A stretch of 64,000 bases of DNA from an uncultured Chloroflexia bacterium (GTDB taxonomy: Bacteria; Chloroflexota; Limnocylindria; Limnocylindrales; CSP1-4), in NCBI GenBank assembly GCA_963728605.1, contig CAVSKS010000009.1, positions 599,317 to 663,316 of the forward strand, written 5' to 3'. Under the pieces are notes generated by a model. The model searched no databases, had not been told where the DNA came from, and saw only the letters and a program-made list of their open reading frames with translations. Made by a program: the position numbers and the translations under genes. This document shows, one piece after another, positions 469-6,920 of this stretch (position 1 is its first letter; each line of letters opens with the position of its first letter).

Positions 469-470
469 TC

Positions 471-986
471 GTGGCCGCGTTGGTCCGGCTCGGCGGCCGG
501 GGCACGCTCCGTGATGGTTCGCGCGTCGTCTGGTCCGTGGCGGAGGGCCGTCGCGGCCGGCGCTGGCGGGAGGTCCGAACGGCCGCCGACGGGGCGGTCA
601 TCAGCTCGCTCCTCCTGGAGACCGACGCGGACGGACGGTTCAGTCACACCGAGCTCGCGACGGCGGCGGGACTCCTGACCCTTCACCCGGAGGGTGACGG
701 CACCCTCCACGGCAACCTCATCACCGAGGGCGGCGTGCAGCACGTCCGGGGCGTCCCGTGGCACGCCGATGGTGCCGTCCTGCTGCTCGAATCGCCGGTC
801 GCCACCGCCGTCGCGGCGGCAACCGCCCGCCGCCTCCGAGGGCCGATTCCGAGGGTGGTCTTCATCGAGCCCGAGGATCTCCGCCTCCTCCCGGGCAGCG
901 ACGTCGAGCAGGCCTCGGAGGGCGTCATCGACACCGAGGGGTTGCCGATCCTGACGGACGCCGAGAGCTGGCCGCTCGAGGAGTAG
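471..986 (+). CDS. hypothetical protein
   Basis: GTG at 471, 3 nt after the hflX stop, in the frame of ORF 261..986. Third-position GC is very high throughout. No recognisable domain. Confidence 0.55.
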   Translation: MAALVRLGGRGTLRDGSRVVWSVAEGRRGRRWREVRTAADGAVISSLLLETDADGRFSHTELATAAGLLTLHPEGDGTLHGNLITEGGVQHVRGVPWHADGAVLLLESPVATAVAAATARRLRGPIPRVVFIEPEDLRLLPGSDVEQASEGVIDTEGLPILTDAESWPLEE

Positions 987-1007
987 GGGAGTCCCAAGGC
1001 CGAAGGT

Positions 1008-1072
1008 CGATTGTGGATAACCTGTGGAAAAGCCTCCAAATAAGCACGCCCCAACTCGGAAAGCTGTGGATA
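1008..1072. promoter_or_regulatory. cluster of DnaA-box-like 9-mers: TGTGGATAA twice, TGTGGAAAA once
   Basis: Two perfect matches to the E. coli-type DnaA box (TTATCCACA on the other strand) at 1010-1018 and 1062-1070, plus a 1-mismatch copy between them. A fourth 1-mismatch copy, GTGGATAAC, heads the paralogous element at 3414-3422. Confidence 0.3.
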
Positions 1073-1205
1073 ACTCCCTTCCCCCCGGGTGACCTCCACC
1101 GCTACTGTTGGTCTTGCCTGAAGGGGCAACCAGACCGAAAGCGACACCGTTGGTACTTGTATTGACGGGGTCGACTACGGACCGGATGTTCCTTCGGGCG
1201 TTTTC
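1064..1205 (+). ncRNA. candidate cis-regulatory structured RNA leader (riboswitch-like), copy A; class unknown
   Basis: About 140 nt with a paralogous copy at 3413-3553. The blocks gtcttgcctgaagggc.ac..gaccgaaagc, ctacggaccg and ggttccttcgggcgttt are conserved, with variable and partly compensatory bases between them. The 5' gcctgaagg (1116-1124) can pair with the 3' ccttcgggc (1191-1199) as an enclosing P1. It ends in a U-run directly before an ATG at 1206. Confidence 0.4.
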
Positions 1206-1583
1206 ATGTCCGCCGACCATGCGCCGCTCAATCGGCTCCTGCATGGCGCGGCCAACTCGGCGCGAGCGAGCTTCCGCGGCAAGCCGACCGCCGAGAGTGA
1301 GGCGGCGGTCCGGCGCGCCTTGCGGGAGGTTACCTTCCGCTTCGAGCTGGTCACGCGGGCGAACGTTGTGGCCCATGAGGCACTCGACCTCGATGCGTTC
1401 GCCTATGCGGCGTTCACCAGCCAGCGGTCGGTCTCGTCGCACAGGAAGGCTACCCACTCGGTCCCGGGCTCGCGGTCGGGGCCGTGGTACACGACGCCGC
1501 ACAGCTTTCGCCCCGCTGGCAAGGCCTCGGCGGCCGCCTGCCAGGCGCCCTGTAAAGCAGCAATGTCCATGTTGGAACTCTAG
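1206..1583 (+). CDS. hypothetical protein (uncertain)
   Basis: ORF begins right after the RNA-like leader and has high third-position GC in its first two thirds. A competing 55-codon minus-strand ORF (1403-1570) also looks protein-like. No known domain. Confidence 0.3.
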   Translation: MSADHAPLNRLLHGAANSARASFRGKPTAESEAAVRRALREVTFRFELVTRANVVAHEALDLDAFAYAAFTSQRSVSSHRKATHSVPGSRSGPWYTTPHSFRPAGKASAAACQAPCKAAMSMLEL

Positions 1584-1969
1584 GACCAACCAAGCGGACG
1601 ACACGCCGCCCACTATGTCTACATCGTGACTGTGCAACGCACCTTCTCGATGGATTGCGCTCGCCTCTTGCAGTGGCCGCCCGCTAAACCCGTAGAAAGG
1701 TCGTCGTCGCTGTTAGCCGATCGTCCGGCCGCATCGCTACTGGCAGGGAGCGGATTTCGCGCTTCAAGCGCCTCGGCGACGCAACGGAGAACACCGTTGG
1801 CCTGCTCAAGCGGTCCGGTCCGAAGATCGCCGCCCGAAGGCAACGGAGACCGGTGTTGGCGACAAATTGAGGGGTGACGGTGGGGACCATCAGGAGCAGC
1901 ATACGGCGATTGGCGCGCGATGCGAGGGGTCGCGCGACCGCCCACGTTCGTATTCGGTGGAGGTTGGCC

Positions 1970-2734
1970 ATGCTGCTCAAGCGACTCTCGCGTCGTCTTC
2001 TCGCTCCGCTTTCGCTCATCGCCCTTGGCGCGGCTGGCCCACTCGCTGTTCTGGCATCGCACCAGTTCACCGACGTGCCCACGTCGAGCACCTTCCACGC
2101 CGACATCGACGCCATCCGCGACGCCGGCGTGACCACCGGCTGCGCCGTCGGCAAGTACTGTCCCAAGGACTTCGTCACTCGCGAGCAGATGGCGGCGTTC
2201 CTCAACCGTCTGGGCGCGCTGCAGGCAGGCAAGCCGCCGGTCGTCAACGCCAAACTGCTGAACGGCAATCCCGCCACGAGCTTTCTGCCGTCAGGCGGGT
2301 TGACGACCGTCAGTCAAATTGGGCCGTGGACGACTATCGGTCAGCCATCCGTGATCGTTGACAACACTTGGGACACGCGGGTCTGGGCGCCCGAGGACGC
2401 AGGCCTTTGGCTCAATCTTCGCCCGCCCGCCGGGTTCAGCGGCTTTACGTGGTGGCTATCGAGAATCGAGGTGTGCTTCGGCTCGGGCAGCACGGACCCT
2501 GTAACGGTCAATGAGCTGACGGTCGGCCAGACCATCGACGGCGACCCGACCGTGGCCCTCTCCACGCGAACAACGCCAGTCACCATCGGGGCTGGCGAGT
2601 GCGATGTCCTCACGGTCACACCAGGGCCGCAAATCGCCGGCGCGTATTGGGTTCATATGGAACTCGATGGAGGGCAGGACGTTCAGGTCTTCGTCGGGGA
2701 AGTCCGATCGTTCTGGGGCTTCCAGAACGACTAG
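1970..2734 (+). CDS. SLH (S-layer homology) domain-containing secreted protein
   Basis: ATG at 1970 preceded by GGAGG. Signal peptide MLLKRLSRRLLAPLSLIALGAAGPLAVLA, then an SLH motif FTDVPTSSTFHADIDAIRDAGVTTGC...FVTREQMAAFLNRL. Confidence 0.75.
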   Translation: MLLKRLSRRLLAPLSLIALGAAGPLAVLASHQFTDVPTSSTFHADIDAIRDAGVTTGCAVGKYCPKDFVTREQMAAFLNRLGALQAGKPPVVNAKLLNGNPATSFLPSGGLTTVSQIGPWTTIGQPSVIVDNTWDTRVWAPEDAGLWLNLRPPAGFSGFTWWLSRIEVCFGSGSTDPVTVNELTVGQTIDGDPTVALSTRTTPVTIGAGECDVLTVTPGPQIAGAYWVHMELDGGQDVQVFVGEVRSFWGFQND

Positions 2735-2869
2735 GGCCAACTCGCAAGCCGGCGCGGTGACCTGGGCTGCATCGCTCGTCCCCGATTGGTAATCCCAGGT
2801 CGCTCCAGATGGAAAGACGCCTTCGCCCCCTTGCTCATGGCTAGATGAGTGTCACGGTCCGCAAGACGG

Positions 2870-3361
2870 TCAAGTGGTACGCGGGCCGCTACGCCCCTCG
2901 CTCAGCTTGGTGTCACTCCAGACCTGGAAGCGGAATGTCTGGCCCGGCAGCAGGGTGACATCCTGGCGCGCCGAGCCCGTCGCCCCGGTCTGGAACGAGA
3001 CCCATGACGGCGGAGCCTCGGGATCGAGTGGCTGGCGGACGTTGCCATCGGGCAATGACGGGGCCTGGTAGAGGCTGCCGCCGGACGTCGCGCTGAGGCC
3101 CCACAGTCCGCTCCCGGCCTCGAAGCCCGGGGAGGTCAGGAACTGGTCGTCGGTCTGGATGGCGTGGCCCTCGTTGTCGCGGATCGTCCGGGCTGTCGTC
3201 TGGGCCACGCTCCGGCCGGATAGGTAGAGGTTGCGGACCTGGGGGCCGGTCAGGACCTGACTCCAGATCGCCGGCTCGTCAATCCAGCCGTCGAACCACT
3301 CGGGCGAGGACGTCAAGCCCGTCGCCCCGGCCGCGGCCGTCCACCGGCCTGCCTGGGCCAT
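2870..3361 (-). pseudogene. truncated LamG/concanavalin-like domain protein fragment (C-terminal part only)
   Basis: Contains FDGWIDEPAIWSQVLTGPQVRNLY, the C-terminal signature of LamG-type domains, only about 30 aa after the first Met. The N-terminal about 100 aa of the domain are missing. The upstream sequence in frame is unrelated and stops at about 3452. Confidence 0.4.
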
Positions 3362-3412
3362 CGTGGAAGAGGTGTGGACAAGCGAGGCGATCCGCGACAG
3401 GTTTCTCCGAAA

Positions 3413-3553
3413 CTCGTGGATAACCGCCTTCCCAGGTGCCGACCTTCCCGACTACAGTAGGTCTTGCCTGAAGGGGCCACGGACCGAAAGCAGTCTCGCG
3501 GGTGCTTGCATCAGCGGGAATGGCTACGGACCGACGGTTCCTTCGGGCGTTTC
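3413..3553 (+). ncRNA. candidate cis-regulatory structured RNA leader, copy B (paralogue of 1064-1205)
   Basis: Same conserved blocks and the same P1 arms (3466-3474 with 3540-3548) as copy A. Lies directly upstream of the dehydratase-like gene at 3579. Confidence 0.4.
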
Positions 3554-3578
3554 TCTTTGTCCCCGGAGATCCGCAGCC

Positions 3579-4550
3579 GTGCCGGTCCCGCGCGACGATC
3601 CCGAGCTCGAGCCCGCGGCCATTCGCGCCGCCGTGGCCGACATCGACCCCGTCTTCAGCAACTCCCCGCAGTTCGTCCACGACGGCCTGTCCGAGCGCGC
3701 CGGTCGACCGGTCGTCGTCAAGGTCGAGACCGTCAACCCGATCGGCGCATTCAAGGGCCGTGGAACTTGGCTGGTCATGCGCCGACTGGCAGGGGAGGGG
3801 AGGGTCGGCCCGGATCGTGCCTGTGTCGTCGCCTCGACCGGCAACTTCGGGCAAGGCATCGCCTACGCCGGCCGGTCGATCGGCGTGCCGGTCGTCGTGT
3901 TCGCGCACGCGGACGCCAATCCCACCAAGGTCGACCGGATCCGCCGGTTCGGGGCGACCGTCCTGGCCACGGGACGCGACTTCGACGAGGCTCGCGAGGC
4001 GTCCGCCAGGTACGCCAGGGAGCATGACGCCACGCTCGTCGTCGACGGTGAGCTGCCGTCGATCGCCGCCGGCGCCGGGACGCTCGCCGTCGAGCTGACC
4101 GACGCGGTCGCGGCGGGGCGCCTGCCCCAGATCGGTGCGGCCTACGTGCCGGTCGGCAACGGTGCGCTGATCGTCGGCGTCGGGGCGTGGCTGCGATCGG
4201 CCGCGCCGGGCTGTCGGGTCATCGGGGTGCAGTCGGACGCCGCGCCGTCGATGACCCTGTCGTGGCGGGAAGGCCGGCTCGTCGAGACCGAGACCGCGGA
4301 GACCTACGCCGACGGGATCGCCACCAGGGTTCCGGTCCCGGAGGCCCTCGAGATGATGGGCGGCCGGGTCGACGACATGCGGCTCGTCGCCGAGGCGGGC
4401 CTCCACGCCGCCCAGGTCGAGCTACGCGAGGCGCTCGGGATCACCGTCGAGGGCGCGGCCGCCGCGTCATGGGCAGGGCTGCTAGCCGATACCGAGCCGG
4501 CGCCGGGTGCCGCACTGGTGATCATCACGGGGAGCAACGCCCCCCGCTGA
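3579..4550 (+). CDS. PLP-dependent fold-type II enzyme (threonine/serine dehydratase or cysteine synthase superfamily)
   Basis: GTG at 3579, in the frame of ORF 3363..4550, chosen downstream of the leader. FKGRG lysine motif, STGNFGQGIAYAG glycine-rich loop, typical length. Confidence 0.8.
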   Translation: MPVPRDDPELEPAAIRAAVADIDPVFSNSPQFVHDGLSERAGRPVVVKVETVNPIGAFKGRGTWLVMRRLAGEGRVGPDRACVVASTGNFGQGIAYAGRSIGVPVVVFAHADANPTKVDRIRRFGATVLATGRDFDEAREASARYAREHDATLVVDGELPSIAAGAGTLAVELTDAVAAGRLPQIGAAYVPVGNGALIVGVGAWLRSAAPGCRVIGVQSDAAPSMTLSWREGRLVETETAETYADGIATRVPVPEALEMMGGRVDDMRLVAEAGLHAAQVELREALGITVEGAAAASWAGLLADTEPAPGAALVIITGSNAPR

Positions 4551-5208: not shown

Positions 5209-5499
5209 CTAGCGGTCCAGGCGGAAGTCGAGACCGCGCCTCTGGAGCGCCGGCTTCAGCAGGACGATCGACTTCGGCCCGAAGCCGTGCAGCCGGAGCA
5301 GCTCGCGCTCGCTGTGCCTTGCCACCTGTTCCAGCGTGCGGATGCCGGCCCCGTGTAAGGCATCCCGGGCGGGGTTTGAGAGGCTGGTCGGAAGGTCATC
5401 GGTCGACACGGTCAGCCGACGATAGCAGCCAGAGTCGCGGACCCGACCCACGTCGGCTAGTTGACAGGGCCACGCTCGCCACAACCGGGCCTTGCTCAC
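5209..5499 (-). CDS. small helix-hairpin-helix protein resembling the RNA polymerase alpha C-terminal domain (start uncertain)
   Basis: DDLPTSLSNPARDALHGAGIRTLEQVARHSERELLRLHGFGPKSIVLLKPALQRRGLDF follows the RpoA-CTD pattern (L.LS.R..N.L...GI.T...L......ELL....FG.KS). Third-position GC is high only in the C-terminal about 65 codons, so the true start is probably internal. Confidence 0.45.
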   Translation of the reverse strand: MSKARLWRAWPCQLADVGRVRDSGCYRRLTVSTDDLPTSLSNPARDALHGAGIRTLEQVARHSERELLRLHGFGPKSIVLLKPALQRRGLDFRLDR

Positions 5500-5534
5500 G
5501 TCTCATCGCAAACTTGCAGCGTGGACGTGCCTGA

Positions 5535-6920
5535 ATGACCCGCCGAACCTCGACCCTCCTCACCGCGGCCCTGACGGCGCTCGCCGCCGCCTGCAGCGTC
5601 CGCATCCCGCCAGCATCGTCGCCGCCGATCGCTGGCCCGACTGCATCTGCGACCGCGAGGGCCTCGGCGGCCGCGGCCTCGGCGGTGCCGGTGTCACCGC
5701 TCGTGCCTACGCCTCCGCCGGCCGGTGGGGGCCTCACCGCGGAGCTCGTTTGTGAGGAGCCGGGATGCGGGCTCAGCCTCCTCGACGCCGACGGCGAGGT
5801 CATGCCCGGTTGGCCGGTCGAGCTCGACGGCTTCTGCAGCGGGGCGGTGACCGACGGAATCCAGCGCGTCTATGCGGCCTGTGACATCAGCGTCGAGGGG
5901 CCCACGCTGCATGGATTCAACGCCAGCGGGGCGGTCGCGGACGGCTGGCCCGTCATCCTTCCGGCACCCATCGGCACCGTCTCCGTGAACGATTTCACCG
6001 CGGTATGCGGACGGCAGTTGCCGCCGATCTCCCTTGGCGCGGACGGCACGCTGTACGTGAGCACGTGGGACGAATCCGTGCGGCTGCTCCATGCCATCGA
6101 CCCCGCCGGGCAGCCTCGGGCCGGGTGGCCCCAGCCATTGCCGGGTGACAACCAATTCGGCTGCGGTGGGTTCACGCTCCTGCCCGACCAAACGCTCCGT
6201 GCCTGGGGGTACGAAGGGGAGCCCTCCGTGCCAATCGAACTGGGCTACGGTCCGTTCGCCCAGCGGACCGTATTCACAGCCTTGGCGGCTGATGGCTCCA
6301 CGCTGCCCGGTTGGCCATTCGGTTCAACGGGCACAGGCTCCGGTGCGCTGATCGGCGCCGACGGGACCCTGTACCACGTCTCGGAGGCGGGCAACGTGTG
6401 GGCCCACGGGATGGACGGCCAGCCGAAGCCGGGTTGGCCATTCGCGCTAGGCGAGGAGTGGATGTCGCCGTACCTCGCTCCCGACGGCCGGCTGGTCCTG
6501 CTCTCTGCCACCGGCACCGGCGAGATCGTCGCCATCGGCCCGGACGGAGCCACGTCCCCGGGCTGGCCGCGGCGGCTGCTCGTGGGTCGTGCCTCGCCGT
6601 GTCTGTACAACGGCGACACGGACTGCTTCTTCCTGGTGGAACCGGTGTTCGGACCTGACGGGACGGTCTACCTCGCCCTCGCGCCGATCGCGGAGGGCCT
6701 GGGTGGCAGCATCCTGGCCCTCGGACCGGACGGCCTCGTCCCTGCCGGCTGGCCGTTGCAGCTACCCGACGCCGTGGGCGCGGTCGGGCTGGCGGTCGAC
6801 GGAGCCGGCCACGTCATCGTCCACACGGCGACGTGCACCAGCGAGCCCTGCTGGGAGACCGCGGTCTACGACTCGCTCACCATCAGCGGTGCGGGCCAGG
6901 TCATCGAGGGGCGCCCCTGA
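5535..6920 (+). CDS. lipoprotein with beta-propeller-like GWP repeats
   Basis: Lipobox LTALAAAC. At least seven repeats carry (P/A/D)GWP(V/F/Q). Confidence 0.75.
   Translation: MTRRTSTLLTAALTALAAACSVRIPPASSPPIAGPTASATARASAAAASAVPVSPLVPTPPPAGGGLTAELVCEEPGCGLSLLDADGEVMPGWPVELDGFCSGAVTDGIQRVYAACDISVEGPTLHGFNASGAVADGWPVILPAPIGTVSVNDFTAVCGRQLPPISLGADGTLYVSTWDESVRLLHAIDPAGQPRAGWPQPLPGDNQFGCGGFTLLPDQTLRAWGYEGEPSVPIELGYGPFAQRTVFTALAADGSTLPGWPFGSTGTGSGALIGADGTLYHVSEAGNVWAHGMDGQPKPGWPFALGEEWMSPYLAPDGRLVLLSATGTGEIVAIGPDGATSPGWPRRLLVGRASPCLYNGDTDCFFLVEPVFGPDGTVYLALAPIAEGLGGSILALGPDGLVPAGWPLQLPDAVGAVGLAVDGAGHVIVHTATCTSEPCWETAVYDSLTISGAGQVIEGRP

Follow-up and report, generated by a model that had tools for sequence, protein, structure and literature searches.

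What are the two similar stretches, separated by 2.2 kb, near the start of this window (the whole 64,000-nucleotide stretch of DNA that was analysed), and does either of them act as a regulatory RNA? The first-pass annotation described them as two paralogous leaders of about 140 nt, each with a covarying structure, a terminal U-run and a DnaA-box-like motif at its head, and called them an unclassified riboswitch-like element. The host belongs to the Limnocylindria (CSP1-4/Ellin6529-type Chloroflexota), which are abundant in soils and uncultured. To our knowledge, almost nothing is known about gene regulation in this group.

Positions 1055-1205 and 3405-3553 of the window are two copies (A and B) of one element with 72-75% identity. 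Both paralogues were recovered where they had been described; blastn aligned them with an E-value of 1.6e-19, and a comparison as direct repeats gave 75% identity between 1055-1130 and 3405-3480 and 73% between 1133-1203 and 3482-3552. Exactly two occurrences of each of the conserved blocks GGTCTTGCCTGAAGGGGC and CTACGGACCGnnnGTTCCTTCGGGCGTTT were found in the window, where chance alone would give 0.03 and 0.00, respectively, and GTGGATAAC is found at 1066, 3416 and also 1013. A covariance model of the family (R1), run with filters off, detected these two copies and nothing else in the 64 kb. The GC content of the window is 68.5%; it is 63-68% in the 2.2 kb between the copies, which holds weak ORFs only, versus 72-75% in the flanks. 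A coding ORF within the element was rejected because indels between the copies disrupt all reading frames.

The whole unit is longer than the repeat and spans about 200 nt, beginning at 1012 in copy A and at 3362 in copy B. It consists of three DnaA-box-like 9-mers in the same orientation, a sigma70-type -35/-10 pair, a hairpin of about 85 nt and an invariant U-run. The features of both copies and their neighbours are as follows.

1-468: C-terminus of an HflX-type GTPase, recognized by sequence motifs, not by a family search.
469..986, plus strand: gene X, roughly 171 aa with an uncertain start codon; its stop lies about 25 nt before box 1.
1012..1020, plus strand: copy A box 1, TGTGGATAA, complementary at every position to the DnaA-box consensus TTATCCACA.
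1023..1031, plus strand: copy A box 2, TGTGGAAAA, one mismatch, 11 bp after box 1.
1065..1073, plus strand: copy A box 3, TGTGGATAA, which follows box 2 at 42 bp and precedes the -35 by 5 bp.
1079..1084, plus strand: copy A -35-like hexamer TTCCCC, inferred from T(T/A)nCCA, which is conserved at -36..-31 across 119 units.
1103..1108, plus strand: copy A -10 hexamer TACTGT; the family consensus is TAnnGT at -12..-7.
1115..1200, plus strand: copy A hairpin RNA, with the predicted transcription start at its base (T1115/G1116).
1201..1204, plus strand: copy A U-run, TTTT straight after the basal stem, an intrinsic-terminator signature.
3362..3370, plus strand: copy B box 1, CGTGGAAGA, a weak box.
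3373..3381, plus strand: copy B box 2, TGTGGACAA, complementary at every position to the high-GC DnaA-box consensus TTGTCCACA.
3415..3423, plus strand: copy B box 3, CGTGGATAA, family-typical, the same exact 9-mer in 89/119 units.
3429..3434, plus strand: copy B -35-like hexamer TTCCCA.
3453..3458, plus strand: copy B -10 hexamer TACAGT.
3465..3549, plus strand: copy B hairpin RNA, from fold and covariance model.
3550..3559, plus strand: copy B U-rich tract, TTTCTCTTTG.
3579..4550, plus strand: PLP-dependent Ser/Thr-dehydratase-like gene with a GTG start and a GGAGA Shine-Dalgarno sequence at 3565-3569.

Boxes 1 and 2 of copy A form a double box with a 2-bp gap. The copy A hairpin comprises a conserved basal stem of 13 bp, the internal-loop region GACCGAAAG / CUACGGACC above it and, at the apex, a small hairpin with a tetraloop that is variable. 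The span of about 140 nt proposed for the leader was correct for the hairpin part, while its first 50 nt or so (1064-1114 and 3413-3464) are promoter DNA that carries box 3, the -35 and the -10.

Each copy folds into a single hairpin of about 85 nt, with free energies of -47.5 (A) and -51.2 (B) kcal/mol and z-scores of -3.4 and -3.0. The long-range helix GCCTGAAGG/CCTTCGGGC, which had been thought to enclose the element, forms the base of this hairpin in both copies. Four compensatory pairs distinguish copy A from copy B. RNAalifold analysis of the family alignment gave one hairpin of 33 pairs in which 97.2% of the cells are paired, and the value fell to 34-44% in a control with the 3' partners slid by 1-3 columns. 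Compensatory changes occur at 11 pairs of the family alignment. Changes on both sides of a pair were found in 134 cells versus 27±7 in shuffled alignments, and the observed value was reached in 0 of 500 shuffles. Because the search pattern prescribed the 3' blocks CTACGGACC and GTTCCTTCGGGCG, the invariance of the 3' arm is partly built in; no such constraint applied to the 5' arm, the TTT tail or any covarying position.

The strand of the element was evident from covariance model R1, which scored copy A at 99.2 bits on the plus strand versus 29.5 on the minus strand, and copy B at 107 versus 29.3. Several hairpin pairs are G-U, either invariantly or frequently. The G-U pairs and the strand asymmetry of the scores suggest an RNA made from the plus strand and not a DNA cruciform.

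This RNA matches no Rfam family. A search of Rfam 15 yielded zero matches at the gathering threshold in the whole window and zero matches at E<=10 over 900-3700, in agreement with the earlier statement that the element could not be matched to a known riboswitch class. The families covered include glycine, T-box, ykkC, SRP, 6S, Y RNA and Chloroflexi-1. Nothing overlapped the elements in four related loci (L004, L025, L035 and L047), which include loop variants 2 and 3 described below, and ARAGORN found no tRNA or tmRNA. The glycine riboswitch shares only a short GAAGGGGCAA-like string with the element; it is a three-way-junction aptamer, in contrast to the single hairpin found here, and RF00504 gave no match at E<=10.

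The basal stem of 13 bp pairs UGCYYGAAGGGGC with GUUCCUUCGGGCG. Above it, G-A-CCG-AAAG lies opposite CU-A-CGG-A-C, an internal-loop region with approximate two-fold symmetry in which A-A mismatches flank a CCG/CGG helix. Conserved nucleotides are concentrated in the internal loops, where A26, G29 and A30-G33 are invariant or nearly so. The apical hairpin is stable and its tetraloop varies by sequence (GCAA, CUUG or UUUA). At least three loop variants exist that have the promoter, boxes, basal stem and terminator in common and differ in their middles. Variant 2 carries CAUCUAGUGAUC on each arm around a palindromic CUAG helix and covaries independently, with 11 compensatory pairs in 18 sequences; variant 3 has a GGAGC-rich middle. 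The basal stem is conserved in sequence, not by covariation, to a degree that is more than a plain terminator role explains.

The symmetric conserved internal loops, together with the lack of a single-stranded seed, suggest binding of a dimeric protein. The loops of variant 1 (A-CCG-A / A-CGG-A) and the arms of variant 2 around the CUAG helix would each present such a symmetric site. From the sequence pattern, a dimeric-protein site is the most likely function of the internal loops, and a base-pairing seed or a metabolite pocket is less likely. Within the window, sites that could pair with the conserved loops were not enriched over chance. Gene X, a possible RNA- or DNA-binding partner by position, was rejected as such; its structure was predicted with confidence (pLDDT 93), and the only similarity, a weak one, was to the DUF1089 beta-barrel 2h1t, which has a lipocalin-like fold and not a known RNA-binding fold. 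The gene X family has more than 1200 hypothetical homologues with no Pfam domain, and those that are named come only from Ca. Limnocylindrales and Chloroflexota MAGs.

Further copies in related genomes, a search that had been suggested earlier, were abundant. About 120 distinct units with a common layout were collected from soil and sediment metagenomes (101 loci) and two Chloroflexota MAGs. The true homologues of the genome scan were one Ca. Limnocylindrales MAG (L001) and one MAG labelled Chloroflexia (L004), and its other matches (L002, L003 and L005) were chance hits in coding or unrelated sequence. The metagenome scan used the 3' block, and almost all of its 101 loci were genuine. Model R1 was built from 87 distinct sequences (alignment A3), and when it was run on the related loci it picked up additional copies that had diverged more; these lie on the same strand, and a contig holds up to three. 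The element is conserved in sequence across genomes whose flanking proteins are only 40-60% identical. It is confined to Chloroflexota of the Ca. Limnocylindria type and was previously unclassified.

A tblastn map of all loci placed the units at a near-constant syntenic site, where hflX is followed by gene X, one to three RNA units and often a PLP Ser/Thr-dehydratase-like gene. The unit comes directly after hflX and gene X with no other terminator between. Copy A is nearest to the stand-alone, gene X-proximal copies of other genomes (up to 81% identity), and copy B is nearest to their PLP-proximal copies (up to 86%). The mutual identity of the two copies, 72%, is below that of each with its cross-genome match, which indicates old paralogues and not a recent duplication.

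This distribution also bears on whether the copies are terminal repeats of a mobile element, a MITE or REP sequence, or integron attC-like sites that flank cargo. The repeats do flank a lower-GC segment of 2.2 kb with poor ORFs, variable genes lie between the copies in other genomes, and the hairpin is an imperfect palindrome. Nevertheless, such an origin is extremely improbable. The family keeps to a single syntenic site, the window has two copies in 64 kb and none elsewhere, and each diverged copy is closer to one in another genome. No transposase or integrase is adjacent, and RYYYAAC/GTTRRRY core sites are absent. BLAST against plasmid and phage collections found no element, and a pattern scan of viral contigs gave two chance matches, in a CRISPR array and in a coding region, that the covariance model did not confirm. 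A terminal repeat devoid of covariation, the contrary case raised in the first-pass annotation, is at odds with the strong, strand-specific covariation and its G-U pairs.

Conservation of the units extends well upstream of the RNA. When about 120 distinct units were aligned on the hairpin base, it reached about 105 nt before the RNA. In the family alignment, box 1 is a weak, CGTGGACGG-like box at about -103 from the hairpin base, and box 2 starts 11 bp after the start of box 1 in 117 of 119 units. An exact TGTGGAYAA (complement of TTRTCCACA, a consensus that may not be the host's) stands at box 2 in 88 of the 119, and in 110 of them box 2 departs from it at no more than one position. Box 3 follows at a distance of 41-42 bp and is CGTGGATAA-like with one mismatch (8/9) in 104 of 119 units; a conserved GAAAsTC precedes it, and a -35-like T(T/A)nCCA lies 5 bp downstream. 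The background of near-consensus boxes outside the units is 0.09 per kb, and all three perfect 9-mers of the window fall within the two units. The DnaA-box-like motif noted at the head of each copy is thus a genuine conserved feature, and two more boxes lie upstream of it.

The -35 and -10 are separated by a spacer of 18 nt that is fixed in length and variable in sequence. The T, A, G and T of the -10 (TAnnGT, -12..-7) each carry 1.5-1.9 bits across 119 units. AGGTCT lies between the -10 and the hairpin, and transcription is expected to start on the T or G at the stem base. A simple promoter and terminator scanner detected neither feature in the unit, which is attributable to its strict promoter consensus and its loop limit of 8 nt.

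The identity of the factor that binds these boxes can be approached through their geometry. Winged-helix response regulators use direct repeats with an 11-bp period, and a site beside the -35 is typical of them. The boxes could therefore be direct-repeat sites of another regulator, such as a member of the OmpR/PhoB family, which would make the units resemble the CiaR csRNAs or Qrr sRNAs. Box 1 is degenerate, the first letter of box 3 is C where the consensus has T, and a search of the window and 390 kb of related loci detected no DnaA signature; neither dnaA nor an origin lies nearby, all of which would suit such a regulator. This assignment is quite improbable, given that box 2 has all nine positions of the DnaA consensus, flanking T included, in 74% of the units. 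Boxes 1 and 2, moreover, are a weak box and a consensus box in the same orientation with a gap of 2 bp. ChIP-seq in E. coli showed that paired boxes with a 2-bp gap in a weak-plus-strong combination are the preferred binding mode of DnaA, and box pairs were defined there by the same orientation and a distance of 2-3 bp (PMC11317965).

The boxes do not mark a replication origin. An oriC was rejected because the spacers are GC-rich, neither an AT-rich element nor TAG/GAT DnaA-trios are present, and dnaA is absent from the window and the 390 kb of related loci; GC skew in the window was uninformative. Since the boxes match the DnaA consensus and its double-box mode, yet the locus is not an origin, DnaA is assigned the part of a transcription factor. 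As judged from the motif, a regulator that sets the activity of this promoter is its most likely role. Activation seems likelier than repression because the boxes are upstream of the -35 and not over it.

A function at the DNA level was also considered, in which arrays of 3-9 boxes serve as a DnaA-titration or regulatory locus comparable to datA/DARS of E. coli or the DnaA-box clusters of B. subtilis, and the hairpin is only a strong bidirectional terminator or insulator that separates hflX/gene X from the adjacent genes. The box statistics and the double-box geometry suit this proposal, as do the fixed chromosomal site with one to three units and the position of the hairpin between convergent genes in many loci. 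It is nonetheless very unlikely, as a plain terminator needs neither conserved internal loops nor three maintained loop variants. It also needs no promoter that fires into the hairpin from a fixed distance, and no sequence conservation beyond that of flanking proteins as divergent as these. We know of no hairpin RNA associated with datA or DARS.

The 3' end of the unit has the signature of an intrinsic terminator, a GC-rich stem of 13 bp followed by a U-tract. TTT after GGGCG is invariant in 87/87 sequences, was not part of the search pattern and is followed by 5-6 U in the next 8 nt. The U-run that had been reported before a start codon is present in both copies; an immediate start was found only for a doubtful ORF after copy A, and the PLP gene after copy B starts with the GTG at 3579, which is 26 nt past the invariant TTT and 20 nt past the extended U-rich tract. 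With transcription expected to start at the foot of the stem and U residues behind it, the predicted default product is a hairpin RNA of about 90 nt. We infer the start, the termination and this RNA from the sequence, and DnaA binding from the motif.

The genes that follow the hairpin are diverse. Of 78 related loci, 36 have a PLP gene downstream of the RNA; in these it begins about 30-45 nt beyond the hairpin and has a normal Shine-Dalgarno sequence. Its product matches PF00291 at 9e-58, and the NCBIfam threonine/serine dehydratase models also match, all below their cut-offs. Next to 90 units, the following gene is on the same strand in 68 and convergent in 22. Other same-strand genes encode a CPBP/Rce1-like protease, an AT3-SGNH acyltransferase, an alpha/beta hydrolase, an ABC exporter, a PMT_2 glycosyltransferase, an MBL-fold hydrolase and an EamA transporter, and convergent neighbours encode an AAA_33 kinase, a methyltransferase and a lipoprotein. 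In several loci the units are in tandem, where the boxes of the next unit follow with no gene between.

The PLP gene after copy B lacks room for a promoter of its own and must therefore be transcribed through the hairpin, which places copy B in its 5' leader as had been proposed. Because such a close downstream gene needs read-through, the hairpin would also be an attenuator and a 5'-terminal leader. Attenuation could even be the principal function, if a metabolite or an RNA-binding protein at the internal loops stabilized the hairpin or blocked its closure and so set the level of read-through into the PLP dehydratase, CPBP protease, transporter and other genes, with the stand-alone copies as orphans or decoys. 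Hairpin-type aptamers inside terminators exist, for example, the HMP-PP/thiS riboswitch. The predominance of same-strand genes (68 of 90), the short distance to the PLP gene, the terminator signature and the concentration of conserved nucleotides in the internal loops all fit such a device. As read from the sequence, the arms of the basal stem can also each form a local hairpin (GCCC-GAAG-GGGC and CC-UUCG-GG), and these could compete kinetically with the long stem. Terminator-embedded attenuation as the main role is possible but doubtful for several reasons. Folding with 50 nt of downstream sequence left the hairpin unchanged and predicted no alternative or antiterminator structure, and if transcription starts at the stem base, there is no strand on the 5' side that could compete. 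The downstream genes have no common pathway, 22 of 90 neighbours are convergent, some units are in tandem, and three loop variants occur under an identical promoter. The heterogeneous genes, the convergent and tandem units, the loop variants and the lack of a competing fold mean that the label "riboswitch-like" could not be retained as it stood, and the unit is probably not a classical riboswitch.

Small-RNA genes are expected to conserve promoter blocks and a terminator, as these units do, and to occur independently of a downstream reading frame, as the units before convergent genes and in tandem do. More of the conservation is accounted for by regulation of the promoter through DNA boxes than by an aptamer that senses a ligand. 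The reading that we prefer is that each unit is an autonomous RNA unit with a probably DnaA-controlled promoter, a hairpin RNA product and a terminator that is leaky enough to serve as a leader, and it is held with about as much confidence as doubt. DnaA, bound at the double box and at the third box that abuts the -35, would set the activity of the sigma70-type promoter. Transcription would begin at the hairpin base, and intrinsic termination at the U-run would release an almost fully paired RNA of about 90 nt. A close gene on the same strand, such as the PLP dehydratase after copy B, would be expressed only by read-through. Where a convergent gene or another unit lies downstream, the RNA would stand alone and the hairpin would also terminate the hflX/gene X transcript.

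Several known systems resemble this unit in part. DnaA-regulated promoters, such as purH and nrdAB in E. coli and sda and dnaA in B. subtilis, have the same TTATCCACA/TTGTCCACA-type 9-mers and the same pairing of a weak with a consensus box, in one orientation and across a 2-bp gap; their boxes likewise precede a sigma70-type promoter. They differ from the present units, in which the product is a short hairpin RNA, a third box stands by the -35, the cassette is repeated one to three times and the role of DnaA is predicted. Multicopy sRNAs (CiaR csRNAs, Vibrio Qrr1-5 and tandem PrrF/AbcR) are likewise sets of paralogous RNAs of about 90 nt, each with its own promoter, a regulator site in it and an intrinsic terminator. 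Those sRNAs expose single-stranded seeds, whereas the RNA here is almost fully paired and its paralogues differ in the internal loops. Unlike them, the present units are clustered at one locus and can serve as mRNA leaders.

With the HMP-PP/thiS, PyrR and RAT/BglG attenuators, the unit shares a structured element that is itself the terminator hairpin, 30-45 nt before a gene. In contrast to those systems, it has no coherent regulon, antiterminator pairing or Rfam match, and some units stand alone or face convergent genes. In 3'-UTR-type sRNAs that have a promoter of their own, such as MicL and DapZ, as probably here, one terminator ends both the sRNA and the upstream transcript. The promoter of the present unit is intergenic and not within the upstream ORF, and the tie to hflX and gene X is only syntenic. 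A literature search on RNA motifs of Limnocylindria and on sRNAs driven by DnaA boxes found nothing relevant. The parts of the unit (DnaA boxes, a sigma70-type promoter, an intrinsic terminator and a small structured RNA) are of known kinds. What appears to be new is the way they are combined, in a cassette that is repeated and has several RNA variants, at one fixed locus of an uncultured soil lineage.

In its fullest form, the proposal would make this the first family of small hairpin RNAs controlled by DnaA. Its 3-9 boxes would read the level of the initiator and convert it into protein-binding RNAs of at least three specificities and into read-through expression of adjacent metabolic and envelope genes, while the box cluster might titrate DnaA and so couple replication initiation to physiology. 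This extended scheme is unlikely to hold in its entirety. The RNA family itself covaries strongly, has no counterpart in Rfam and is more conserved in sequence than the proteins around it. Its promoter is unusually well defined, and the sites upstream of it fit the double-box binding mode of DnaA. Even without DnaA, it provides a ready covariance model for annotating Limnocylindria genomes and is a clear candidate for a new class of protein-binding RNA or attenuator. If the promoter is indeed driven by DnaA, the DnaA regulon would be extended to non-coding RNA through a simple cassette of boxes, promoter and terminator hairpin, and the unit may link replication status to RNA and gene expression in these soil bacteria.

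The hairpin form carried by both window copies (variant 1) has sister variants with different middles, which were found in loci fetched by pattern scans:

L025, 1194-1293: sister variant of the RNA
L035, 749-849: sister variant of the RNA
L004, 3343-3440, minus strand: sister variant of the RNA
L083, 6896-6996, minus strand: sister variant of the RNA
L047, 1301-1401: sister variant of the RNA

In variant 2, both arms carry CAUCUAGUGAUC, and in variant 3 the arms are rich in GGAGC. The DnaA-box-like 9-mers, promoter, basal stem, and terminator are common to the sister variants and variant 1, with which they occur in tandem. A viral contig (L107), picked up through a chance pattern match, has a CRISPR array (5250-5560, minus strand; repeat GTTTCAATCCGCGCCCCTGTGAAGGGGCGAC) that bears no relation to the unit.

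Every unit is followed, 7-15 nt past its U-run, by a short conserved motif, (U)GUCC(G/C)G, for example at these window positions:

1207-1215: motif after copy A
3558-3566: motif after copy B

The motif occurs regardless of what comes next, be it another unit or a gene in the same or in convergent orientation.

The 3' arm of the hairpin contains the conserved string (A)CUACGGACCGG, present as A/G-CUACGGACCG at 1170-1186 (copy A) and 3519-3535 (copy B). This string looks like the sarcin-ricin loop of 23S rRNA (AGUAC-GAGA-GGACCGG) once the GAGA loop is taken out and only the two strands are left. The unit adjoins the gene for HflX, a ribosome-binding GTPase; the likeness beside hflX may well be a coincidence.

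Between copies A and B (1200-3400), GC content is 63-68%, compared with 72-75% in the flanks, and all ORFs are weak or fragment-like:

1206-1583, plus strand: weak or fragment-like ORF
1874-2734, plus strand: weak or fragment-like ORF, marginal SLH-domain match
2870-3361, minus strand: weak or fragment-like ORF

No homologues of these three ORFs were found in related loci, and the segment looks like inserted or decaying DNA. It also holds a 21-nt direct repeat (GCAACGGAGAACACCGTTGGC at 1781-1801 and GCAACGGAGACCGGTGTTGGC at 1840-1860, 59 bp apart).

The window starts with the end of an HflX-like gene, recognized by sequence motifs, and then gene X:

1-468: HflX-like GTPase, C-terminal part (sequence motifs, not family search)
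469-986, plus strand: gene X, about 171 aa, no Pfam domain

The predicted model of the gene X protein is confident and weakly resembles the DUF1089 beta-barrel PA1994 (2h1t). The RNA unit is always preceded by gene X, whose family has more than 1200 members, with names solely from Limnocylindrales and Chloroflexota MAGs.
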